64,000 nucleotides of DNA from an archaeon (GTDB lineage Archaea > Aenigmatarchaeota > Aenigmatarchaeia > QMZP01 > JAFGSV01), in NCBI GenBank assembly GCA_028279705.1, contig JANQNF010000024.1:48257-112256 (forward strand), read 5' to 3'. Positions 1 to 51,595 of the stretch are shown here, one piece after another. Numbering within the stretch: the stretch's first letter is position 1; each line of letters begins with the position of its first letter. The notes under the pieces were generated by a model. It made no database searches and had not been told where the DNA came from. It saw nothing but the letters and a program-made list of their open reading frames with translations. Position numbers and translations under genes: made by a program.

Positions 1-543
1 ATTAAAGTGGAGAAGGAAAGGCTCTACATGATGGAGGGCGGACACGTTTTCCCCATAGTCAGCGAACTTGTAAGCGACCTTAACTTGAACGACCACGAGA
101 TAGAGAATCTCATAGAAAAGAAAAAGAAGATTTACAGTGAAATGACGAAAAACCTCAAGATGAGGCCGGAAGCAATAGAGCTCATAGAGAAACTGAGGAA
201 GCTAAACTACAGGATAGGACTCGCTACCGGAAGCCACAAGCATGTGGTTGACGTGCACGTTTCCCAAGAAGAGTACGGGCTTTTTGATTACGTTCTTACT
301 CTTGAGCAGACGAAAAAACCCAAACCCGATCCGGAGCCTTACATGAAGTGCGCAAAAGGCCTTGACGTAAAGCCTGAAGAAGTCGTCGTGATCGAGAACG
401 CACCGCTTGGAGTCGAATCGGCAAAGAGTGCCGGCATGATATGCATAGCCCTCACAAGCACGGTCTCAAAAGAGGACCTCGAAAGGGCTGATTTTGTAGT
501 AGAATCACTTAATGATGTTGAAGATATCATCAAAAGCCTGTAA
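1..543 (+). CDS. HAD-superfamily hydrolase (beta-phosphoglucomutase-like), 5'-partial; open from window start
   Basis: Frame open from nt 1. HAD motifs II/III/IV are visible (GLATGS..., KPKPDPEPY, VVVIENAPLGVESAKSAG). Motif I (DxDG) is absent, so the N-terminus lies upstream of the window. Confidence 0.6.
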   Translation: MKVEKERLYMMEGGHVFPIVSELVSDLNLNDHEIENLIEKKKKIYSEMTKNLKMRPEAIELIEKLRKLNYRIGLATGSHKHVVDVHVSQEEYGLFDYVLTLEQTKKPKPDPEPYMKCAKGLDVKPEEVVVIENAPLGVESAKSAGMICIALTSTVSKEDLERADFVVESLNDVEDIIKSL

Positions 544-586
544 ATGTCAAGACTATCGGATCATAGAGACCCGGATATGACAATAA

Positions 587-787
587 TCAAAGTTCATACC
601 CGGCATTCTGTTTACCGTTTTGTGATACCGCTTTCTCGCTTTTTGCAGCGAGGCTCATCTTCGCGTATATGTCCATGTCCGCATCGTTAATGAGTTCAAG
701 CGGATTCGGACGTTCAAGTGGGCCATTCGTCCCGTACATCGACAGCGGCCTTAAGTCTTTATTCACACCCTTTACATTCTCAGTCAT
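587..787 (-). CDS. small hypothetical protein (~66 aa)
   Basis: ORF track 587..817. I prefer the internal ATG at 787 because GGAGGTGA sits 5 nt upstream as a Shine-Dalgarno. No recognisable domain. Confidence 0.35.
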   Translation of the reverse strand: MTENVKGVNKDLRPLSMYGTNGPLERPNPLELINDADMDIYAKMSLAAKSEKAVSQNGKQNAGYEL

Positions 788-1014
788 TTCCTCACCTCCA
801 TCATATTTTGAAGGCACCAGACAGGTCCGGGGAGAAAAAACTCTTTCTCAGGGAAATGAAGAAGAATTGATGCACCCCGGGAAACCTATGACTAATTATT
901 CTAGGATAATTAGCCCGGTAATACCCATGTGATGCATAACATATCATTCGTTGCGCACTTTTAAATACTTTTGCCTCATGCTTGCGCTTCAGCGTTGTTA
1001 TTTGCCGTAGAAGT

Positions 1015-1043
1015 GAAAAAGAAAAATAATCCCGAGAGGGAGA
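1015..1043. repeat. Direct repeat copy A (gaaaaag-aaaaataatcccgagagggaga); second copy at 3174-3203
   Basis: 28/29-nt identity with one indel to 3174-3203, in the same orientation. Confidence 0.85.
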
Positions 1044-1142
1044 TTCAGGCCCCATAGTGCAACTCCCACCCTTTATTTTATCTAATATGTGTATAAATAC
1101 ATATAAATCCATAGGTCCCTATGAATATATAGGTATGTTAGC

Positions 1143-1481
1143 ATGACAAGAGCAGAGCTAAAGCACCCGGAACATAAGAAAACAGGTGCGGATAACGAGT
1201 GGAAGATAGAGTTCAGCTGCAAGGTCACCCACTATCCGAGGCTGGATACTGTCATAATGGTAGCCGAGACAATAAAGAAAATCGGACCCTGCACGAAGAC
1301 AGAGCTTTCAAGGAAGCTGAAGAAACCTGTCATGTGGCCGACACTTACCGTTATACTTGACTATTTCGAGACTATGGGCTTTACGATAAAGGACAAGAGA
1401 AACCAGATAGTCTGGATATACAATCCCAAGCTTGTGAAGAAATACATAGGCAGGGAGGACCTTAAATGGGAGCCGAAATAA
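1143..1481 (+). CDS. putative antitoxin / winged-helix DNA-binding protein
   Basis: 112-aa protein with a wHTH-like core. Its end overlaps the start of the RelE/ParE-like gene by 16 nt. Confidence 0.45.
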   Translation: MTRAELKHPEHKKTGADNEWKIEFSCKVTHYPRLDTVIMVAETIKKIGPCTKTELSRKLKKPVMWPTLTVILDYFETMGFTIKDKRNQIVWIYNPKLVKKYIGREDLKWEPK

Positions 1482-1795
1482 TATTTGTCGACCGAAAGCT
1501 CAAGGATGAATATGAATCGATAGGGAACAGCTCTGAATTTGCATGGCTTCACAAGGCATTGACCAGAGCATTCAGAGATATCATGGACAATCCGTCTTGT
1601 GGAATTCCACTCAAGAAGTATCGCGTTCCTAAGAATCTCAAGTCAGTAGACATTGACAACCTCTGGAAATATGACCTTCCGGGAGGTTGGAGGCTTCTAT
1701 ACTCTCTTGCAAAAGACGAGATACGCATCATGTCGCTGATACTTGAATGGTGCGATCATCATACATACGAGAAGAAATACAGTGGAAAGAAGTAA
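1466..1795 (+). CDS. RelE/ParE-superfamily toxin
   Basis: The C-terminal motif NLWKYDLPGGWRLLYSL..DEIRIMSLILEWCDHHTY matches the RelE/ParE signature (YRxxY ... HRxxxY). Confidence 0.65.
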   Translation: MGAEIIFVDRKLKDEYESIGNSSEFAWLHKALTRAFRDIMDNPSCGIPLKKYRVPKNLKSVDIDNLWKYDLPGGWRLLYSLAKDEIRIMSLILEWCDHHTYEKKYSGKK

Positions 1796-1802
1796 ACTTT
1801 TA

Positions 1803-3218
1803 TCAGAATTCTTCAGTTTTTGAGTCTATCTGGTACTTACCCTTAGACGAGTACTGGGTCGAAACCTGGTATGTTATCCTGCTCTGATATTCACTGGTGC
1901 TATCTTCTTCAGAAAGTCCGCTGAAATCATATTTCTTTCTTGTGGCATCTTCCTTTGCCGTTTCTTGCGGTATCTTAACCTCAATGCTGAAAACTTCCTG
2001 TGCCTCAGGATAAGAGGACGGCTGACCTTCAGTTCTGAACTTCCATACAAGGCTTCCGTCTGTGTCAATGCAGTAAAGATGACAATCAAATGAGCTGAAA
2101 TAAACATTGCTATCCCAGATTACTGGTCCAAGGTACACTTTTTCTTGTGTGTCAAACTTCCACAATTCCTTTCCACTCATATTGAGGCAGTAAAATGTGT
2201 AGTTTTCACCTCCACTTAAGAAGACTCTATTCCCTTGAACTGCAGGCATGCCAAGTAGTTCATTCTTCTTGTATTTCCATATAATTTTGCCGTCCATAGT
2301 CAAGGCGTACAGTACACCATCTCTGGACGAACAGTAAAGAGTATCATCATGAATCACGGGTGACATGTAATTTCCATATATTCCCATTCTAAGTTTCCAT
2401 TTTTCCTTTCCCGTTTCTATATCAATTGCGTAAAGGTTGTTATCAAAGGAACCAAAGTAAACAACATCGTCATGGACAAGTGGGCGGTTAAGTAAATGTA
2501 TCTCGCCCCGAGTTTTGAATTTCCATATGAGGTTTCCTGTTTTAGAATCAAGGCAATAGAAAAAATGGTCGTAAGAACCGATGAAAACTTTTCCATTATG
2601 GACTGAAGGAGTTGCAACTATTTCATCGTATGTTTTGAATTTCCACACAAGATTACCCGAATTTGCGTCAACTGCATAAAACATATTATCCTTTCCGCCA
2701 ACGTATACGATGCCATCAGCGATCGCAGGTGTCGCACAAATCTTATCACTCGTCTTGAACTTCCATAAGAGTTCCCCGGTTTCTGTATTGATTGCATAAA
2801 GATTGTGGTCGTACGAACCTATGTAAAGAACTCCGTCGCTTATTGCAGGAGAGGATAGATGGATAACATCACTTGTTCTGAATCTCCATATTTCTTTCCC
2901 ACTTTTTGCATCAACCGCATATATATTGTGGTTAGCGCAACCGAAGTAAACAATTCCTTTATGTATAACTGGTATCTGCATTATGCTTCCACCGGTTTCA
3001 ACGCCCCACTGCCTGTCGAACTTCTTAGACTTCTTTACAGATAGGTCTGCCATTTCTATAGAAAAATCCTGGAATGCAGCATCACTTTCTTCCATATAGT
3101 CTATGGATGACGATAAGATTAAAAAGGTCCATATTTCGTTTATTTTGTACTCATAATCGGTATCAATCGAATCTAAAAAGTAAAAATAATCCCGAGAGGG
3201 AGAGTTCCACTCTTCCAC
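1803..3218 (-). CDS. PQQ-like beta-propeller repeat protein (start uncertain, probably internal Met near 3092)
   Basis: About eight repeats of the (Y/F)AxDxxxGxxxWKF(K/R)T motif typical of PQQ/WD-like propellers. The annotated 5' end overlaps the direct repeat and tRNA-Tyr, so the true start is likely downstream. Confidence 0.6.
   Translation of the reverse strand: MEEWNSPSRDYFYFLDSIDTDYEYKINEIWTFLILSSSIDYMEESDAAFQDFSIEMADLSVKKSKKFDRQWGVETGGSIMQIPVIHKGIVYFGCANHNIYAVDAKSGKEIWRFRTSDVIHLSSPAISDGVLYIGSYDHNLYAINTETGELLWKFKTSDKICATPAIADGIVYVGGKDNMFYAVDANSGNLVWKFKTYDEIVATPSVHNGKVFIGSYDHFFYCLDSKTGNLIWKFKTRGEIHLLNRPLVHDDVVYFGSFDNNLYAIDIETGKEKWKLRMGIYGNYMSPVIHDDTLYCSSRDGVLYALTMDGKIIWKYKKNELLGMPAVQGNRVFLSGGENYTFYCLNMSGKELWKFDTQEKVYLGPVIWDSNVYFSSFDCHLYCIDTDGSLVWKFRTEGQPSSYPEAQEVFSIEVKIPQETAKEDATRKKYDFSGLSEEDSTSEYQSRITYQVSTQYSSKGKYQIDSKTEEF
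3174..3203. repeat. Direct repeat copy B; overlaps the 3' end of tRNA-Tyr (T-stem 3' strand + acceptor 3' strand + 13-nt flank)
   Basis: See copy A. The reverse complement tctccctctcgggattattttt contains the tRNA 3' end. Confidence 0.85.
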
Positions 3219-3361
3219 GGGATTGTGGAATCGTTTTGAACTCCCGACCTATCGGTCTCTTTCGAGCGACTGCGTCCAACAAACACACTCATAAGACCGT
3301 GCATATATCACGGTGTGCCCGTCTACAGCCGATCGCTCTAGCCAGTCTGAGCTACCTCGGG
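3190..3361 (-). tRNA. tRNA-Tyr (anticodon GUA) with a 66-nt anticodon-loop intron and a second ~31-nt insertion at the T-loop/T-stem junction
   Basis: The minus strand reads CCCGAGG-TA-GCTC-AGACTGGCTA-GAGC-G-ATCGG-CTGTAG[66 nt]A-CCGAT-AGGTC-GGGAG-TTCAAAA[31 nt]CTCCC-TCTCGGG-A. All stems pair and there is a C1:G72 pair, which is a Tyr identity element in archaea. The mature length is 75 nt. Confidence 0.6.
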
Positions 3362-3385
3362 ATTGTAATAGAATATGACATGAAA

Positions 3386-3397
3386 GCCTTAAAAAAG
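3386..3397 (-). promoter_or_regulatory. TATA/BRE-like element about 25-35 nt upstream of tRNA-Tyr
   Basis: The minus strand reads CTTTTTTAAGG just upstream of the tRNA 5' end. Confidence 0.3.
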
Positions 3398-3401
3398 GTA
3401 A

Positions 3402-4745
3402 TCATGCTGCAATGTTGAGTTCCTTTGTCTGCACTTTGGATTTGCCGCCCTTGCCCGTTGAGTACCTCATGAAGGCTTTTGGTACTTTAAGGCTGCCCTT
3501 GACCACTGGATTCATCTTGTAGTGTATTATCCTGTGGTCCCCTGGCTCTATTGCGGGAAGCGACCATACGAGTTCGGTCATTTCCTTGTGATGCTTCACT
3601 GCAGGCTTCACTGTCTCGAAATCATCTTTCAGGTTGAAAAGCGGTGAGACCTCGTCCTTTACGATGACATCTGTTATCTTCTTTCCGGCGTTCTTTATCT
3701 CAAGCACGGTCATGTAGCTTCCGTCTTCTCCCATTTCGACCTTTTTCCTGAGAGCAGGAGTATTGATCTTGGTCCTCCCGAAGAACACGAAGACTCCGAG
3801 AAGCACGGCGATTAAAAGGCCTTCAGCTATGAGCGGCCAGTACTGTACCCGGTAGACGATTTGCATTGCTTCTTCAGGGTTGAGTTTTGACACAGTCCAT
3901 TCGCATACACTCTCATCGCAACTTTCTGGTTCCTGTGAAAACGTGACGAAACCGGTCGGCACGTTCGCACTTACCGTGTAGTCCTCCTCTATCACGTTGC
4001 CCTCGTTTGACACGCTTATCACGAATTCCTGGAACAACGGGTTTGTGCTCTCTTCTTCTGTCTTTACCATCCTGTGGACAGGCTCTATCATGAACGATTT
4101 TTCCAAAGATATGTCGGTGCCCTTCACTTCAGCCTTGGCGGTGTATGTGTCTGCGAAAGGTGCAGCACTCAGTGGTATTTCATGTGTCAGGTTGGTCCTG
4201 CCTTCGATGAATAATGTCTTTGTGTAAGTGTACATGGTCTTTTTGGAACTACTCACAAGCGAGAATTCCGCGGTCACCTCTTCCTCAGTGCCTGAATCCA
4301 GCTCAAGCAGCATGTCCACGCTGTCTGCGCTCTTTTTTATTTCACCGTCAAGTTCGCTTACTTCTCCCTCGCCAAGAACAACCAGTTCCACCTTCTCGCT
4401 TAATACCAGCTCGGGTTTGTCATGGGACTGGACCTTTATCTCGTACTCATAAGTTCCCGGTACATCGTTTGGGTAAAACTCGATTTTTACCGTGACCGGG
4501 TCTTCTACCGGGAGGTCTATGTAGGAAGTTCCCATGTTGATCCAGTGACTCGGGGATCCTGTCACAAACAGGTACAGTCCGCCCACTGACTCAGGACTGT
4601 ATGCTGTCACAGTGAATTTTGTCATCTCTCCTGGGTTGACCCTGAGAACTTTTGGGACGACTTCCAGGCTCATGTCCGTCTGGGCAGAAACTAAACCGAT
4701 GCTTACGATGAATGCAATGAGCGTGAATGCCAGTATCTTTTCCAT
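3402..4745 (-). CDS. secreted, membrane-anchored cell-surface protein (hypothetical)
   Basis: N-terminal signal peptide MEKILAFTLIAFIVSIGLVSAQT and a C-proximal TM helix LIAEGLLIAVLLGVFVFF followed by a basic cytoplasmic tail. Confidence 0.55.
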   Translation of the reverse strand: MEKILAFTLIAFIVSIGLVSAQTDMSLEVVPKVLRVNPGEMTKFTVTAYSPESVGGLYLFVTGSPSHWINMGTSYIDLPVEDPVTVKIEFYPNDVPGTYEYEIKVQSHDKPELVLSEKVELVVLGEGEVSELDGEIKKSADSVDMLLELDSGTEEEVTAEFSLVSSSKKTMYTYTKTLFIEGRTNLTHEIPLSAAPFADTYTAKAEVKGTDISLEKSFMIEPVHRMVKTEEESTNPLFQEFVISVSNEGNVIEEDYTVSANVPTGFVTFSQEPESCDESVCEWTVSKLNPEEAMQIVYRVQYWPLIAEGLLIAVLLGVFVFFGRTKINTPALRKKVEMGEDGSYMTVLEIKNAGKKITDVIVKDEVSPLFNLKDDFETVKPAVKHHKEMTELVWSLPAIEPGDHRIIHYKMNPVVKGSLKVPKAFMRYSTGKGGKSKVQTKELNIAA

Positions 4746-4854
4746 GTAAAAGACCTCTTGGTGCTTTCCTTATTGACTCTAAAATTTATAAATATGAACG
4801 TGGCAGAGCTCTAATTTATATTTAACCCGGCAATATACAGATTACCACGCAATC

Positions 4855-4929
4855 GGGACCGTGGTGTAGCTTGGCCTAGCATCGGGGCTTCGGGAGTCCC
4901 AGACCTGAGTTCAAATCTCAGCGGTCCCA
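4855..4929 (+). tRNA. tRNA-Pro (CGG)
   Basis: 75-nt cloverleaf GGGACCG..TTCAAAT..CGGTCCCA with anticodon loop TTCGGGA. Confidence 0.8.
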
Positions 4930-4963
4930 TCGAATGACCCCCAAAACAATTATACGGTAAAAT

Positions 4964-5038
4964 GGGGCCGTAGTGTAGTTTGGCCTATCACTCGAGGCTG
5001 GGGGCCTCGTAACCGGAGTTCAAATCTCCGCGGCCCCA
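4964..5038 (+). tRNA. tRNA-Pro (GGG)
   Basis: 75-nt cloverleaf GGGGCCG..TTCAAAT..CGGCCCCA with anticodon loop CTGGGGG. Confidence 0.8.
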
Positions 5039-5050
5039 TCCTTTTTTTAT
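5039..5050 (+). terminator. oligo-T archaeal terminator after the tRNA-Pro pair
   Basis: A T7 run lies immediately 3' of the tRNA. Confidence 0.4.
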
Positions 5051-5072
5051 ACACGATTGAGCAAATGGAAGT

Positions 5073-5236
5073 ATGGGAAAAAATAAGGCAGACGAGGCAG
5101 GAGGCCTGGTCTTTGTTGGCGGGTTCTTCATCGGTTTTGCCGTCGGTGTACTAATGGGAAGGTATGACGTTGCTGCATTCCTTGCGCTTGGGATAGGATT
5201 CTTAGGTATGGCCGCTGTTCGTCTGAAGTCCAAGTG
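5073..5236 (+). CDS. small hydrophobic protein (54 aa), not in the ORF track
   Basis: ATG..TGA ORF MGKNKADEAGGLVFVGGFFIGFAVGVLMGRYDVAAFLALGIGFLGMAAVRLKSK with two predicted TM segments. Confidence 0.3.
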
Positions 5237-5289
5237 AATGAAAATCCTGCGTCGCTAGGATTTTTATTTAGGCCCTGACAACTATTACT

Positions 5290-6141
5290 ATGCTAGGATG
5301 GCTGCTTCTTGCAATAGGAGTCGTGGGTTTCAGCTGCGCCGGCTGGAAGGACTTAAAGACTACGGAATTTGAGGACTGGCTCCCCTACTCCATCATAATA
5401 GCCGCGCTCGCCGTTAGGGGAGTGTTTTCGCTTGTTTTAGGAGATTTTGCTATAATAACAGATTCCATCCTTTACGGACTCATCTTCCTTGGATTCGGCT
5501 ATCTCCTATACATGCTCAGGCAGTGGGGAGACGGCGACGCCTGGCTCATGGGGGCAATGGGATTTCTTTTTCCAAACGCGACGGGATTTGCGCCATTTTT
5601 CGCAAGCAGCATGCCATTTCCTTTGCTTGTGATATTCAACTTCTTCATGGTCGCGCTTGTGTACATGATAGTCTATTCATTCATACTTGGCATAAGGAAA
5701 CCAAAAGTGGTAGCGACTTTCAGAAAGAACCTGCAGATACGGAAGAAAGCGATTGTATATGTTTTTGCCCTTCTGCTTTCTGTGACAATATTTACTAGCT
5801 TGTACTTGTCGTCAGTTTATCCTGTAACAATCTCTGCGTTCACCGGTCTCTTCACACTACCTTTTGTAGCCGCGGGTATATTGGTTTTCCTTCAGTATGC
5901 GAGAGCCATTGAGAATGACCTTTTCAAGCGAAAGATAAAGATGAGGGATCTAAGAGTAGGTGACGTCCTCATGACGGATAGAGTAAGAGGACTCACCGAA
6001 GAGGAAGTGAACAAGCTGAAGAAGAAGGGCGGCAGCGTGTGGATAAAGGAAGGCGTCAGGTTCGCACCTGTCTTTGTCATAAATCTCTTGGTCACACTTT
6101 TCATCGGGAACCTGATGGCACTTTTCATACCGCTGATATAG
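5290..6141 (+). CDS. A24-family prepilin/preflagellin peptidase (PibD/FlaK-like)
   Basis: Polytopic membrane protein. The GDGDAWLMGAMG motif resembles the catalytic GGGDVKLL box, and there is an upstream Asp in TM1 (LGDFAIITD). Confidence 0.55.
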   Translation: MLGWLLLAIGVVGFSCAGWKDLKTTEFEDWLPYSIIIAALAVRGVFSLVLGDFAIITDSILYGLIFLGFGYLLYMLRQWGDGDAWLMGAMGFLFPNATGFAPFFASSMPFPLLVIFNFFMVALVYMIVYSFILGIRKPKVVATFRKNLQIRKKAIVYVFALLLSVTIFTSLYLSSVYPVTISAFTGLFTLPFVAAGILVFLQYARAIENDLFKRKIKMRDLRVGDVLMTDRVRGLTEEEVNKLKKKGGSVWIKEGVRFAPVFVINLLVTLFIGNLMALFIPLI

Positions 6142-11241: not shown

Positions 11242-12399
11242 TCAGTCCCTGAAATACTTCAGCGTGATGAAAGTACCCAGTATGGCCATTGCGAATATCA
11301 CCTGAAAGACCATGTTACCTATGAAGTATGACAATGCTGCGTATATCGACAGGATTGCCAATTCGGAAAAGCAGATGATCATCTGCTTGCACGTTGCGAA
11401 GAGTTCTAGTTTCCTGCTGTTTCTTATCTTCTCGAATACCTGGGAATAGAAGCTGTCCCTGAATGAAGACCACGATATATGGTTGAACGACTGGACGAAG
11501 AATGCTGCAAGGGGGGTTACCATCGCAAACATGTACCCCAGATAGCCGATCCCCTGAAGCACCCCACCGCCTGTTTCTGACTGCTTCCTCCTCTTGTCAG
11601 CGTAGTTTCCATACAGGAGTATGAAAAGGGATTCCACGATGATTGCCGATATGGTGACGTTACCCAGTGTCTCAAAGCCGCCGAAGGTTATGAAGATGAA
11701 AAGCGGCGCGATGAAAAGGCTTGCGATAATCGCCATGGACATGCCAAAGAACGGTAGCAGGTTCTCGCGGAAATCATCTGAGACGAGGTATCCAAAAGGT
11801 TCAGTGAAACGCGTTTTGCTTCCATCCCCTTTAGGCATCCTGATTTTCAGTAGCGGTATGGTCGAGAGGAAGAGTGCAGCTATGGCAAGGACAGCAACCG
11901 GAAGGTAAGAGTAATTGACAAGGAAGAACGTCCCGATGGCAACTGAAACTATACCGGAAACCGATGAAACCACCCTCTCCATTGTGAGCTCCTTACTTCT
12001 GTTGATGTTTTCCACCAGCTGGGCGTGTATTATGTTATTGCAGGGATCGTATATGCCCCTTGCTATACTGTGAAATACGAATGCCGCCAAACCGAACAAG
12101 AGCGACACTTCCGTGAACGCTATTCCTATGAAGAAGAACGACATGAATACGTATGATACGAGTATTGCCTTTGCAAGTCCCATCCTGTCGAAGAGTTCCG
12201 GGCCAAGCGGCGACATAAGTCCCCTCAACCCGAATTCGAGCCCGACGAGGACGAATATGAGGTAGAGCGGCACGCCGATTGAATAAAGGTATGCAGCCGT
12301 GAATATCTTTACAAGCGCCCTTGAGAAACTGTGTCCGCTTCTGTGCAGGTACATCTCCGTGTAATTCCTGTCAGAGAAATACCCCCCACGAATGCTCAT
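11242..12399 (-). CDS. MFS transporter
   Basis: About 12 TM segments and MFS motif A (GPELFDRMGLAKAI). Confidence 0.65.
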   Translation of the reverse strand: MSIRGGYFSDRNYTEMYLHRSGHSFSRALVKIFTAAYLYSIGVPLYLIFVLVGLEFGLRGLMSPLGPELFDRMGLAKAILVSYVFMSFFFIGIAFTEVSLLFGLAAFVFHSIARGIYDPCNNIIHAQLVENINRSKELTMERVVSSVSGIVSVAIGTFFLVNYSYLPVAVLAIAALFLSTIPLLKIRMPKGDGSKTRFTEPFGYLVSDDFRENLLPFFGMSMAIIASLFIAPLFIFITFGGFETLGNVTISAIIVESLFILLYGNYADKRRKQSETGGGVLQGIGYLGYMFAMVTPLAAFFVQSFNHISWSSFRDSFYSQVFEKIRNSRKLELFATCKQMIICFSELAILSIYAALSYFIGNMVFQVIFAMAILGTFITLKYFRD

Positions 12400-12952
12400 T
12401 CCATTCTATTCTCCGCGCTCAAATAAAAATAATTTTAACTCAAGAAACAGTGAAAGTATTTATACTTTCCAATACCAAAATAATTTTACGCACTGTAATC
12501 ATAACGTTTTTTCAAGGATTGCTGGGCGCAAGGAATAGCTCCAGGAGCTTGCTTTCGTCCGGTATATCCCCAGCCGCAGAAAAGAGGATTTTATTTGGAC
12601 GTTAGCCAAAGGACAATACAGTAACCCTATTTTCTGGATTAGCCCCTTGCGACCAAAACATGAAAATCGTAGTGAGAGTTTACGGGTCATCTTCGAGAAA
12701 AGAATCATCCCCAAAATCAGTAGCACTTATTTGACACAATGGTGGTAAAGTGCATTGGGGACCTGCAGACTACAGAGTCATCTGCCATGAGTACCCACTT
12801 AGCCAGGGACTTTAGGTGTGACTGCATAATCTGCACTTATTTCATAATTGCCTGCGAGATTTTATATAAGTTGTGGTACCACTTTTCCTGAACACCTTCA
12901 ATTGCCCCAAAAAATACAAAAAAGATTTTAATCCTTCCGGGAAATCTGTAAG

Positions 12953-14062
12953 ATGGAAAATGTCGCTTGGGTCGATTTTGAAACCATGGAGAGATTCATG
13001 GTAGACGTTCTGAAAGCTGCGGGTGTTCCCGAGGAGAATGCAAAGATCGCTGCGGACGTGATGATAACGGCTGACAAGATGGGCATAGACTCCCATGGCA
13101 TAAACCGGCTGAAGTCCATGTACTATGACAGGATAAGGGCAGGGGCGCTGGATCCCAAGGCCGAGCCAGAAATCGTAAGGGAGGGGCCAACCACCACGGT
13201 CATGGACGCTCACAGCGGCCTCGGCCATTCTGTTTCCAAGAAGGCCATGCAGATTGCAATAGACAAAGCAAAGAAGTACGGCATGGGGATGACAGTTGTC
13301 CGGAACTCCAACCACTACGGAATAGCCGGTTACTATTCCCTCATGGCTGAGAAAGATGGCATGATAGGCATCTGCGGAACCAATGCCAGGCCTAGCGTCG
13401 CGCCCACTTTCGGCGTCGAAAACATGGCCGGGACAAACCCGCTTGCTTTCGCGATGCCAAGTGACGAGGATTTCCCATTCTTTTTTGACGCAGCAACGTC
13501 CATGACTCAGCGCGGAAAAGTGGAGGTCTGTGCAAAAAAAGGCAAGGATCTTGCAGAGGGGCTTGTAATAGGCGATGATGGGAAAAGCATTACCGATCCA
13601 AACAAGGTTCTTGAAGGCTTCACGAATGGTAATGCTGCACTTTGCCCTCTTGGCGGGATACTGGAAGAGACCGGCAGCCATAAAGGATACGGGTTCCTGA
13701 CAGCTATCGAGATACTATCCGCAGCCCTTCAGGGCGGAAGCTTCCTGAAGATGCTTTCCGGCCTTGATGAAAACGGTAAAAAAGTCCCCTGCAAGCTCGG
13801 CCACTTCTTCATTGCAATAGACATTTCCGCATTCACGGACCTTGGGTCTTTCAAGAAGACGACAGGCGACATACTGCGTTCACTCAGAAGCTCAAGGAAG
13901 GCGCCTGGAAAGGAGAGGATATACACGGCCGGTGAAAAGGAGTATCTCGTTCAGATCGAGCGCAAGGACAAGGGCGTCCCTCTAAGCGAGAGCCTCCAGG
14001 AAGAGGTCCTATATCTCAAGAAAGAACTCGGTCTTGACAGTTACCATTTCCCTTTCGGCTAG
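12953..14062 (+). CDS. Ldh_2 family dehydrogenase (malate/L-sulfolactate/ureidoglycolate dehydrogenase-like)
   Basis: Conserved GINRL...SNHYGIAGYY...GTNPLAFAMP blocks. Confidence 0.7.
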   Translation: MENVAWVDFETMERFMVDVLKAAGVPEENAKIAADVMITADKMGIDSHGINRLKSMYYDRIRAGALDPKAEPEIVREGPTTTVMDAHSGLGHSVSKKAMQIAIDKAKKYGMGMTVVRNSNHYGIAGYYSLMAEKDGMIGICGTNARPSVAPTFGVENMAGTNPLAFAMPSDEDFPFFFDAATSMTQRGKVEVCAKKGKDLAEGLVIGDDGKSITDPNKVLEGFTNGNAALCPLGGILEETGSHKGYGFLTAIEILSAALQGGSFLKMLSGLDENGKKVPCKLGHFFIAIDISAFTDLGSFKKTTGDILRSLRSSRKAPGKERIYTAGEKEYLVQIERKDKGVPLSESLQEEVLYLKKELGLDSYHFPFG

Positions 14063-16181: not shown

Positions 16182-16649
16182 TTATGAAACTGTTCCGGTT
16201 ATTGTACCCATTTCCTTGAATCCGGTCAGTCCCGTGTCGAGATTGTCGTAGGTCAGCTCGACATCTGCCGAGTAAGTTGATCCGGCTGTCTGGTCAGTGC
16301 AGTACGCATTGATGGTTATACCCGTACCTACTCCCACAGAACCCGTTCCTGACGTGGCAGTGCAGCTTGTCGCACCAACGCTTACCGCGATTGCTGTTAT
16401 GTTTATCCTTGACGGAAGGTTGTTGGCCAAAACGAGCTGGAACTGATCTGTTGCATTGGTTGCACCAAGCTTCCATGCACCAGGTTCAGGCGCACCGATG
16501 TTTGTGAACCCAGTTGCCCTGGAACCAGTCCAGGTCGCCGGATTGAACACGCCGAGCGAATAAAGCGCCGCTGCCACGATGATCACGATCAGGATGGCCC
16601 AACCGTAAGTCATCAAGTATTCCATTGCTGCTTGTGCTTTCATTTTCAT
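16182..16649 (-). CDS. archaeal type IV pilin-like protein (class III signal peptide, DUF361-like), paralog 1
   Basis: N-terminus MKMKAQAAMEYLMTYGWAILIVIIV (K-A/Q-AAMEYL prepilin motif followed by a hydrophobic helix). Ser/Thr/Gly-rich secreted domain. Confidence 0.7.
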   Translation of the reverse strand: MKMKAQAAMEYLMTYGWAILIVIIVAAALYSLGVFNPATWTGSRATGFTNIGAPEPGAWKLGATNATDQFQLVLANNLPSRINITAIAVSVGATSCTATSGTGSVGVGTGITINAYCTDQTAGSTYSADVELTYDNLDTGLTGFKEMGTITGTVS

Positions 16650-16783
16650 ATTAATCTTATATTATCGTCAGTTCCTTATAAACAGACATGCGGCATGTAC
16701 CCATGCCACGCGGAAAATATTGTTAGAAATAGAAAAATGAATAAATTCAAATGGAATGGCTTGGATCAGGGTTACCTGAGACT

Positions 16784-17251
16784 CTAACTTACGGTTCCGG
16801 TTATTGTACCCATTTCCTTGAATCCGGCAAGACCGGTGTCAAGGTTCTCGTATGTCAGCTCGACATCTGCCGAGTAAGTTGATCCGGCTGTCTGGTCAGT
16901 GCAGTACGCATTGACTGTTATGCTCGAACCAACACCTGCAAGTCCTGTTCCTGCTGTAGCAGTGCAACTTGTTGCACCGACGCTGACTGTAACGGCTGTT
17001 ATGTTTATCCTTGACGGAAGGTTGTTAGCCAATTTCAGCTGGAACTGATCTGTTGCATTGGTTGCTGACAGTTTCCAAGCGCCTGGTGCGGGTGCACCGA
17101 TGTTTGTGAACCCAGTTGCCCTGGAACCAGTCCAAGTTGCCGGGTTAAAGACACCAAGTGCATACAATGCCGCTGCCACGATGATCACGATCAGGATGGC
17201 CCAACCGTAAGTCATCAAGTATTCCATTGCTGCTTGTGCTTTCCTCTTCAT
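16784..17251 (-). CDS. archaeal type IV pilin-like protein, paralog 2
   Basis: About 90% identical to 16182-16649 at both nucleotide and protein level, a tandem duplicate. Confidence 0.7.
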   Translation of the reverse strand: MKRKAQAAMEYLMTYGWAILIVIIVAAALYALGVFNPATWTGSRATGFTNIGAPAPGAWKLSATNATDQFQLKLANNLPSRINITAVTVSVGATSCTATAGTGLAGVGSSITVNAYCTDQTAGSTYSADVELTYENLDTGLAGFKEMGTITGTVS

Positions 17252-51382: not shown

Positions 51383-51432
51383 GAAACTCCCAGAAATTTT
51401 ATTAATGTTACCCTGTCATTATATTCATCGAT

Positions 51433-51529
51433 GGGCCTGTAGCTCAGTCTGGTTAGAGCACCCGGCTCTTAGGGGTCACTTGACCACGGAGAAACCGGGG
51501 CGTCGCGGGTTCGAATCCCTCCAGGCCCA
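51433..51529 (+). tRNA. tRNA-Lys (CUU) with 22-nt intron at the canonical 37/38 position
   Basis: GGGCCTG-TA-GCTC-AGTCTGGTTA-GAGC-A-CCCGG-CTCTTA[22 nt]A-CCGGG-GCGTC-GCGGG-TTCGAAT-CCCTC-CAGGCCC-A. Confidence 0.7.
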
Positions 51530-51595
51530 TTTCATTTTCTAAAGTTTTCCCACAGAAGACCGAAGGGTTTTTATTACTTTCTTTCAAGAATCAAT

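Follow-up and report, generated by a model that had tools for sequence, protein, structure and literature searches.

A probable tRNA-integrated element lacking an integrase beside a two-intron tRNA-Tyr gene of an Aenigmatarchaeota genome

In SSV-type (partitioning) integration, the N- and C-terminal halves of the integrase overlap the two copies of the repeat that bounds the element. The cis-mobilizable elements (CIMEs) of streptococci and decayed islets adjacent to tRNA genes, both described in bacteria, are flanked by attachment (att) sites and keep accessory or addiction genes without genes for recombination. She and co-workers are said to have classified the archaeal elements that integrate at tRNA genes, the pNOB8-type among them. 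In this pNOB8-type (non-partitioning) arrangement, the attachment site of the integrative element lies outside the integrase gene (PMC3293823). In ‘Caldiarchaeum subterraneum’, a 1.8-kb insert that encodes a putative recombinase lies between a fragment of tRNA-Thr(GGU) and a two-intron tRNA-Thr gene; it was found by comparison of filled and unfilled loci and was read as the trace of a tRNA-integrating element, which the authors argue delivered an intron (Sugahara et al. 2012, PLoS One, PMC3293823). Here we describe a 2,130-bp insert at positions 1044–3173 of a 64-kb stretch of contig JANQNF010000024.1, hereafter the window, from an archaeon of the Aenigmatarchaeota. The insert is bounded on one side by an intact tRNA-Tyr gene and on the other by a second copy of the 3′ end of that gene. 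It carries a toxin–antitoxin pair and a gene for a PQQ-like (pyrroloquinoline quinone-like) beta-propeller protein, and is probably a decayed or non-autonomous tRNA-integrating element.

The locus shares with pNOB8-type elements a tRNA end directly repeated at both borders, a regenerated tRNA gene, an attachment site that is not inside a gene of the element and an insert immediately downstream of the tRNA. It differs in that no integrase lies by the tRNA or in the insert, which is only 2.1 kb long, and in that the identity covers 28 nt, an intron in the T-loop interrupting the usual 40–50 nt of tRNA homology. The Caldiarchaeum locus is the closest published analogue and likewise has an insert of about 2 kb, with a tRNA gene of several introns on one side and a direct-repeat fragment of that gene on the other. 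There, a 5′ fragment lies upstream of the tRNA and a recombinase is present, whereas here the duplicated part is the 3′ exon, it lies downstream, a recombinase is lacking and the T-loop intron is native. With CIMEs the insert has in common that it is a segment bounded by attachment repeats, without recombination genes and with addiction genes kept; unlike them it is archaeal, and no cognate integrase was identified in the window.

Duplication of the tRNA 3′ end at both borders is also a feature of SSV-type integration, and an earlier note on this DNA, made from its letters, had considered that an SSV-type integrase might have been split and lost. This part of the note is not supported. The open reading frames (ORFs) that read through the repeats, 801–1112 and the 5′ extension of the PQQ gene (1803–3218), carry no integrase signal, and the latter runs into the PQQ propeller.

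The repeated 3′ end of the tRNA-Tyr gene

The insert lies between two copies of a direct repeat in the same orientation. Its exact core, the 22-nt sequence AAAAATAATCCCGAGAGGGAGA, is found at 1022–1043 and 3182–3203 and at no third position in the window, where no copy is expected by chance, even with up to 3 mismatches. At 93% identity the repeat extends over 28 nt (1016–1043 and 3176–3203). By direct reading it spans 29 nt in the distal copy (1015–1043) and 30 nt in the copy next to the tRNA (3174–3203), the two being set apart by one indel (t at 3181) and a mismatch at the first base. No other long non-coding direct repeat of this sort exists in the 64 kb. Over 11,481 nt, both junctions included, the sequence agrees in every letter with an independent Logan assembly of SRR20820740.

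The tRNA-proximal, attL-like copy (3174–3203) consists of exon 3 of the tRNA gene and its trailer. Read as the reverse complement, it comprises T60, the 3′ strand of the T-stem (CTCCC), the 3′ strand of the acceptor stem (TCTCGGG) and the discriminator A (together 3190–3203), followed by about 15 nt of trailer. The start of the repeat coincides exactly with the intron/exon border in the T-loop. The distal, attR-like copy (1015–1043) consists of a pseudo exon 3 (1030–1043) and a T-rich trailer, TTATTTTTCTTTTTCAC, which ends in ..TCAC and is of the native type found in the relatives L003 and L004. The trailer after the intact tRNA departs from this native type beyond about 15 nt, and the element side begins there. 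The earlier note had placed a direct repeat at these positions and had recognized the second copy as the reverse complement of the tRNA-Tyr 3′ end; the exact 22-mer and direct reading bear out both statements. Nor is the repeat a widespread motif, being unique in the window and without matches in the collections scanned.

The tRNA-Tyr(GTA) gene occupies 3190–3361 on the minus strand and has two introns. Exon 1 (3361–3323) is followed by a 66-nt intron at the canonical position 37/38 of the anticodon loop (intron 1, 3322–3257), exon 2 (3256–3235), a 31-nt intron in the T-loop at about 59/60 (intron 2, 3234–3204) and the 14-nt exon 3 (3203–3190), with borders accurate to about 1 nt. In the raw sequence of 3190–3361, the gene is overlooked by both ARAGORN and Rfam on account of its two introns. 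Once the T-loop intron is removed, ARAGORN calls a tRNA-Tyr(gta) with a 66-nt anticodon-loop intron, and the call becomes a 75-nt tRNA-Tyr(gta) when both introns are taken out. Conservation of the exons and of intron 1 extends to 12 relatives, which have the same tRNA-Tyr in the same neighborhood and come in part from a genome collection and in part from metagenomes scanned with a 21-nt word of the tRNA.

The two introns contrast with one another across the window and L003, L004, L007–L011, L030, L094, L097 and L101. The anticodon-loop intron is nearly invariant in the 12 species, whose proteins are 47–86% identical; it folds as a long hairpin and may itself be functional. L004, L009 and L094 lack the T-loop intron, which in the other relatives ranges from about 31 to about 98 nt and falls into at least three sequence families. 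The T-loop intron of the window is homologous to those of L003 and L008, relatives described as insert-free. In L008 (CP070804, a complete chromosome of a metagenome-assembled genome, MAG), a run of N at about 5800–5815 covers the tRNA-Tyr 3′ end and the sequence downstream, where occupancy is unreadable. Since the intron is shared with these two relatives, it is native and the crossover lies 3′ of it; delivery of the intron by the element, following the Caldiarchaeum model, is therefore rejected.

A low-threshold Rfam scan of 900–3450 returned only an sR28 match below threshold inside the PQQ gene (17.8 bits against 39), which we take as chance. Elsewhere in the window, at 51432–51530, ARAGORN reports a tRNA with an impossible four-base anticodon, and the Rfam tRNA score is 52.9 bits. 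This is probably another intron-containing tRNA, mis-parsed.

Unoccupied sites in related species

A scan with the neighboring geranylgeranylglyceryl phosphate (GGGP) synthase returned 73 loci, the closest of which belong to MAGs of Aenigmatarchaeota (DPANN) at 75–86% protein identity. Read in the sense of the tRNA, the loci of the relatives run from the tRNA-Tyr and its T-rich trailer through a conserved intergenic sequence and then small ORFs to a haloacid dehalogenase (HAD) hydrolase gene. The site is unoccupied in L003, L004/L094, L010, L011 and L101. In these, the tRNA-Tyr 3′ end runs straight into the sequence that in the window is found beyond the distal repeat. The comparison with related genomes proposed in the earlier note, which looked for a site free of the insert, therefore has a positive outcome in other species.

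Homology of the flank was judged with an nhmmer profile, as column identity in a forced multiple alignment proved uninformative. Made from what follows the tRNA in six relatives, the tRNA itself being left out, the profile has a single match in the window, at 968–780 on the minus strand (E 5.3e-8), the next hit having an E value of 0.11. In the relatives, the conserved intergenic flank starts about 36 nt past the tRNA-Tyr 3′ end. Its counterpart in the window, the native downstream flank of the tRNA (B′ arm; 780–968, minus strand), lies beyond the distal repeat and enters the start of the small ORF 587–817. Because the profile of the relatives matches only there, 1044–3173 is, by comparison with related species, inserted DNA, and a duplicated tRNA 3′ end bounds it. 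None of the 12 relatives has a second copy of tRNA exon 3; only the window has one.

The flank itself comprises about 190 nt conserved across species, with a TTTAAAAG box, a TATGCATC motif and a terminal GGAGGTGA followed by ATG. Its possible roles include those of a long leader or small RNA ahead of ORF 587–817.

The interval between tRNA-Tyr and the HAD gene (543–3190 in the window) is a hot spot of gene turnover, as seen in L003, L004, L009, L011, L030, L097 and L101, and its length ranges from 12 nt to 2.8 kb. It holds nothing in L101 (12 nt from the tRNA end to the HAD gene), a small ORF in L003 (558 nt), small ORFs in L004/L094 (834 nt), an acetyltransferase-like gene in L011 (1,125 nt) and L009 (1,174 nt), a PQQ gene and others in L030/L095 (2,799 nt) and the insert in the window (2,647 nt). 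Besides such small ORFs and acetyltransferase-like or PQQ genes, the interval can hold a retropepsin-like ORF in the relatives.

Genes of the insert and their relatives elsewhere

The coding capacity of the insert is taken up by genes for a protein with a winged helix, a toxin of the RelE fold and a PQQ propeller, which leave no space for a remnant of an integrase. Pfam and structure matches agree with the earlier note, which had listed a RelE/ParE-like module and a PQQ propeller gene without an integrase. The first two genes, orf112 (1143–1481, plus strand) and orf109 (1466–1795, plus strand), overlap by 16 nt. Neither of the two proteins has a Pfam match alone. Among 29 relatives of the 109-aa product of orf109, 16 match ParE_toxin and 10 match YoeB_toxin (best E 2.3e-6), and the AlphaFold2 model of orf109 (predicted local distance difference test score of 77) has YoeB, RelK, HigB2 and ParE2 as its top Foldseek hits, with probability 1.0 and template modeling scores of 0.6–0.77. 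These matches place orf109 as a putative toxin of the RelE/YoeB/ParE superfamily. The AlphaFold2 model of orf112 has a helix-helix-helix-beta-beta order with a C-terminal helix and resembles MarR, IclR and DtxR winged helices at probabilities of 0.95–1.0 and weak E values of 0.01–0.1; the protein is a predicted DNA-binding protein and presumed antitoxin and autorepressor. Homologues of orf112 and orf109 occur only as a pair in every context examined and, in the searches made, only in DPANN archaea.

From these models and the pairing, we infer that orf112 and orf109 form a type II toxin–antitoxin pair with the corresponding activity. Like known systems of the RelE/YoeB/ParE kind, the pair would combine a small RelE-fold toxin with an overlapping upstream partner predicted to bind DNA and a promoter palindrome. 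Unlike those systems, the partner is a 112-aa winged-helix protein and not of the YefM/Phd, RelB or ParD type, neither protein reaches a Pfam model alone and the family is confined to DPANN in our searches. The probable promoter and operator of the operon, as read from the sequence, lies at 1091–1142 (plus strand). It contains the TATA-like runs GTATAAATAC and ATATAAATCC (1091–1110), the inverted repeat CATAGG-TC-CCTATG (1110–1123) and a TATAGG (1128–1133). In L104, the related pair is preceded by a homologous ATATGTATGTATAAACATATA motif, likewise rich in A and T.

The third gene encodes a 430-aa PQQ-like beta-propeller protein beginning MEESD... (1803–3095, minus strand; Pfam PF13570, 2e-71, and PF13360, 1.9e-53). 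The start at 3095 was chosen by alignment with the homologue in L030. The public gene call, of 471 aa with a GTG start at 3218, begins inside the tRNA-Tyr gene, and homologues point to 3095 instead. The 5′ extension of this call and the spurious ORF 801–1112 read the repeat in the same frame (SPSRDYF).

The PQQ family is large, with more than 2,000 members (clusters) at E ≤ 1e-60, and often has several members per contig in Aenigmatarchaeota, where a contig of 10 kb can have as many as four or five (the contigs behind P0112–P0202). Its members replace unrelated genes at syntenic positions, for example after an ArsA-like gene in L030, which has copies at 4308–5606 and 11786–13135. The best matches to the PQQ protein of the insert, 58% and 53% identical, lie in ordinary chromosomal contexts and adjoin neither tRNA-Tyr nor toxin–antitoxin genes.

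The toxin–antitoxin family is found in at least five unrelated chromosomal contexts in the relatives. These include positions beside a Fic gene, in the gap between a response regulator and a tRNA synthetase, in the gap between hycI and bPH_2 and after a helix-turn-helix (HTH) gene. In L105 and L106, a pair 64–66% identical to that of the window lies inside a 3.9-kb segment between 53-nt direct repeats (87% identical), and the segment encodes a 209-aa tyrosine integrase (PF00589, E 5.5e-28). The segment, at 1634–5575 in L105 and present also in L106, further encodes a winged-helix protein, a DUF4234 membrane protein and two unknown ORFs; its tyrosine recombinase is very small. The 53-nt repeat of L105 matched no tRNA or other Rfam family, and a 22-nt motif, GAACCTAAAGTGAG(A/G)GTTCAGC, recurs inside the segment. 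The L105/L106 element is like the insert in that it carries the same toxin–antitoxin family, is small and is bounded by direct repeats. It is unlike the insert in having an integrase and winged-helix and DUF4234 genes, in that its repeat is not of tRNA-Tyr and in lacking a PQQ gene.

In L104, a pair 85% and 70% identical to that of the window is followed by an internally deleted PQQ gene. Three 35-nt copies of a repeat (AAAAATAACGTAAT..GGCTTTAAAC.GGGTTC; 1062–1096, 1825–1859 and 2414–2448) bound first the toxin–antitoxin pair and then the deleted PQQ gene, a layout that resembles a cassette array. The toxin–antitoxin module thus travels on integrase-bearing elements and adjoins PQQ genes more than once.

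The earlier note had also pointed to base composition and codon skew, and the insert does stand apart. Its GC content of 40.7% is the lowest in the window, against 46.8 ± 2.0% for equal-sized stretches, of which 0.08% are as low, and its tetranucleotide distance is at the 94th percentile. Third-position GC content (GC3) is 0.40 for the PQQ gene, 0.48 for the toxin gene and 0.60 for the antitoxin gene, compared to 0.55–0.59 for neighboring genes; the low GC content of the insert is driven by the PQQ gene, which deviates in GC3.

Next to the distal copy, in what would be the arm of the element, lies a tRNA-like stretch (1061–1074, minus strand). Its sequence AAAGGGTGGGAGTT agrees with the variable loop and T-stem 5′ strand of the tRNA, ATAGGTCGGGAGTT, at 11 of 14 positions, and 20 unrelated nt separate it from the distal repeat. 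The chance of finding GGGAGTT within 40 nt is about 0.002, in a post hoc test. A T-stem-like GGGAGTT at this place is as expected of an attachment site modeled on a tRNA, and the likeness suggests that the attachment site of the element may have been modeled on a longer 3′ stretch of tRNA-Tyr, its T-loop interrupted by a different insert.

Elsewhere in the window, two adjacent 155-aa ORFs (16189–17090) have a 300-nt stretch in common at 84% identity, indicating a recent tandem gene duplication.

Possible histories of the insert and their meaning

The reading we hold to be likely is that 1044–3173 is a tRNA-integrating element, either decayed or non-autonomous. The order of the locus fits integration at a 3′ end, with the tRNA, core, element arm, element, element arm, core and native flank following one another. 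The unique repeat, the intact tRNA and the empty sites uphold the attL/attR-like signature of tRNA-gene integration that the earlier note had proposed, and the absence of an integrase together with the content of the insert makes its second proposal, a decayed or non-autonomous element, the best reading. We infer, from this layout, that an integrase did the joining and that the whole 2.1 kb entered as one unit.

Under this reading, a circular element with an attachment site resembling the tRNA-Tyr 3′ end would have met the chromosome, and a crossover would have taken place inside the 22–28 nt made up of the last exon (T60–A73) and the T-rich trailer. It would have regenerated an intact tRNA on one side (3174–3203, then element DNA) and left a duplicate 3′ exon and trailer on the far side (1015–1043, then the original downstream flank). 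Of the attachment site usual for tRNAs, the T-loop intron leaves 28 nt, and integration appears to have occurred nonetheless. The joining enzyme would have been a tyrosine recombinase acting on an attachment site outside the integrase gene, in the pNOB8-type arrangement. As there is no integrase in the insert, the insert would be either a deletion remnant, its integrase having been lost later, or a non-autonomous element served by an integrase in trans. The toxin–antitoxin pair would favor retention of the element, and the PQQ gene would be cargo. The expected junctions are ...GTGGAAGAGTGGAAC-TCTCCCTCTCGGGATTATTTTTCTTTTTCACTTCTACGG for the empty attB site and ...CACTATGGGGCCTGAA-TCTCCCTCTCGGGATTATTTTTACTTTTTAGATTCGATTG for the circular attP form.

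Several results weigh against this reading. Pfam searches of the ORFs found no integrase, integrase fragment or excisionase in the insert, and no integrase was found among 20 further ORFs of 260–400 aa in the window; a tblastn search with the L105 integrase likewise gave no match in the window. Phage and plasmid collections gave no match to the insert DNA or to either small protein, and neither the antitoxin profile nor the L105 integrase has relatives among viral contigs. The 22-mer AAAAATAATCCCGAGAGGGAGA has no exact match in the metagenome and viral collections scanned, and exact-pattern scans of public collections returned no circular or attP form and no attB variant. The empty sites come from a comparison between species, with GGGP synthases 75–86% identical, and not from the level of strains. 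A PQQ homologue, 46% identical, with matching place and orientation but without repeats is present in L030/L095, and a PQQ gene might therefore be an older resident of the site. The host-like GC3 of the antitoxin gene (0.60), set against 0.40 for the PQQ gene, suggests a mosaic rather than a uniform import.

A transposon or casposon does not fit, as the ends of the insert have no terminal inverted repeats (8 nt being the best word that they share), neither a transposase nor Cas1 is encoded and the 28-nt duplication exceeds known target duplications. A 17-mer spanning the end of the T-loop and exon 3 gave four matches in viral contigs, all coding and without tRNA context, which we attribute to chance.

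Among other histories, the one that survives best, though we think it unlikely, is insertion without an integrase, in which circular or linear DNA from a related archaeon carrying a tRNA-Tyr 3′ fragment entered at the conserved end of the tRNA by homologous (Campbell-type) or illegitimate recombination and duplicated 28 nt. The lack of an integrase in the insert and in the scanned part of the window would be explained, the nearly identical tRNA exons across species would serve as a homology anchor and the interval is a hot spot whose content differs in almost every relative, L030 having a PQQ gene there without repeats. Yet only 22–28 nt of identity are available, the hypervariable T-loop intron cutting the homology short, a length that suits integrase core sites, of which it is typical, and is small for homologous recombination. 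Nor would foreign DNA that entered by a double crossover duplicate the tRNA end, and the same toxin–antitoxin family is found on an integrase-bearing, repeat-flanked element.

A stepwise assembly, in which the PQQ gene was resident first and a toxin–antitoxin cassette with an extra tRNA 3′ fragment came later, so that the repeats are not the ends of one element, seems more doubtful still. It draws on the PQQ homologue at the same position and orientation in L030/L095, on the behavior of the toxin–antitoxin pair as an independent two-gene cassette elsewhere and on the unlike GC3 of the toxin–antitoxin and PQQ genes. Against it, an arrival at the tRNA 3′ end would have put the new DNA on the tRNA side of a resident PQQ gene, whereas the toxin–antitoxin pair here lies distal to that gene. 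Between the window and L030, the PQQ proteins are 46% identical, compared to 64–84% for flanking genes, which fits different paralogues better than orthologues, and the upstream regions of the two PQQ genes share no similarity, the alignment score being no better than that of shuffles. The closest relative, L003, is without a PQQ gene at this place.

That the distal copy is a separately transcribed 3′ piece for trans-splicing, in the manner of split tRNAs, is highly improbable. In the sense of the tRNA, an AT-rich, TATA-like sequence does lie upstream of the fragment, and the T-stem-like GGGAGTT precedes the fragment, but this AT-rich sequence is more simply the divergent promoter of the toxin–antitoxin operon. 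A complete, conserved tRNA-Tyr lies 2.1 kb away and needs no second 3′ piece, the pseudo T-loop has a G where C56 is required, so that splicing yields no 7-nt TTCRANN loop, and no relative has such a fragment. Finally, a chance match or common genomic motif, for which nothing speaks beyond the partly low complexity of the A-rich half of the repeat, is refuted by two copies against none expected even at 3 mismatches, by the uniqueness of the pair in the 64 kb, by the zero matches in metagenome and viral collections and by the exact fit of the repeat to the tRNA end, and its probability is practically nil.

Titles and the opening parts of abstracts in the literature yielded no description of tRNA-targeted integrated elements in Aenigmatarchaeota. 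Read as a tRNA-integrating element, the insert would provide a clean and well-delimited case of tRNA-targeted integration in this little-studied DPANN lineage, being otherwise an ordinary small genomic islet with an addiction module. The locus also illustrates how multi-intron tRNA genes hide integration sites from standard annotation, as both tRNA finders missed the gene and the public PQQ gene call begins in the tRNA. The end of the repeat at the border of a variable T-loop intron offers a concrete locus for asking if tRNA introns limit or shape integration. One speculative extension, to which we give little credence, is that the insert is no dead remnant but belongs to a class of integrase-less DPANN mini-elements with a toxin–antitoxin pair and a gene of the expanding PQQ family, which are moved in trans and attach by nothing more than the final exon of tRNA-Tyr and its trailer, and that the extreme variability of the T-loop intron, from absence to about 98 nt beside a nearly invariant anticodon-loop intron, reflects selection for breaking that attachment site. 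If true, the variability of this intron would be a live example of the idea that introns protect tRNA genes from integration.

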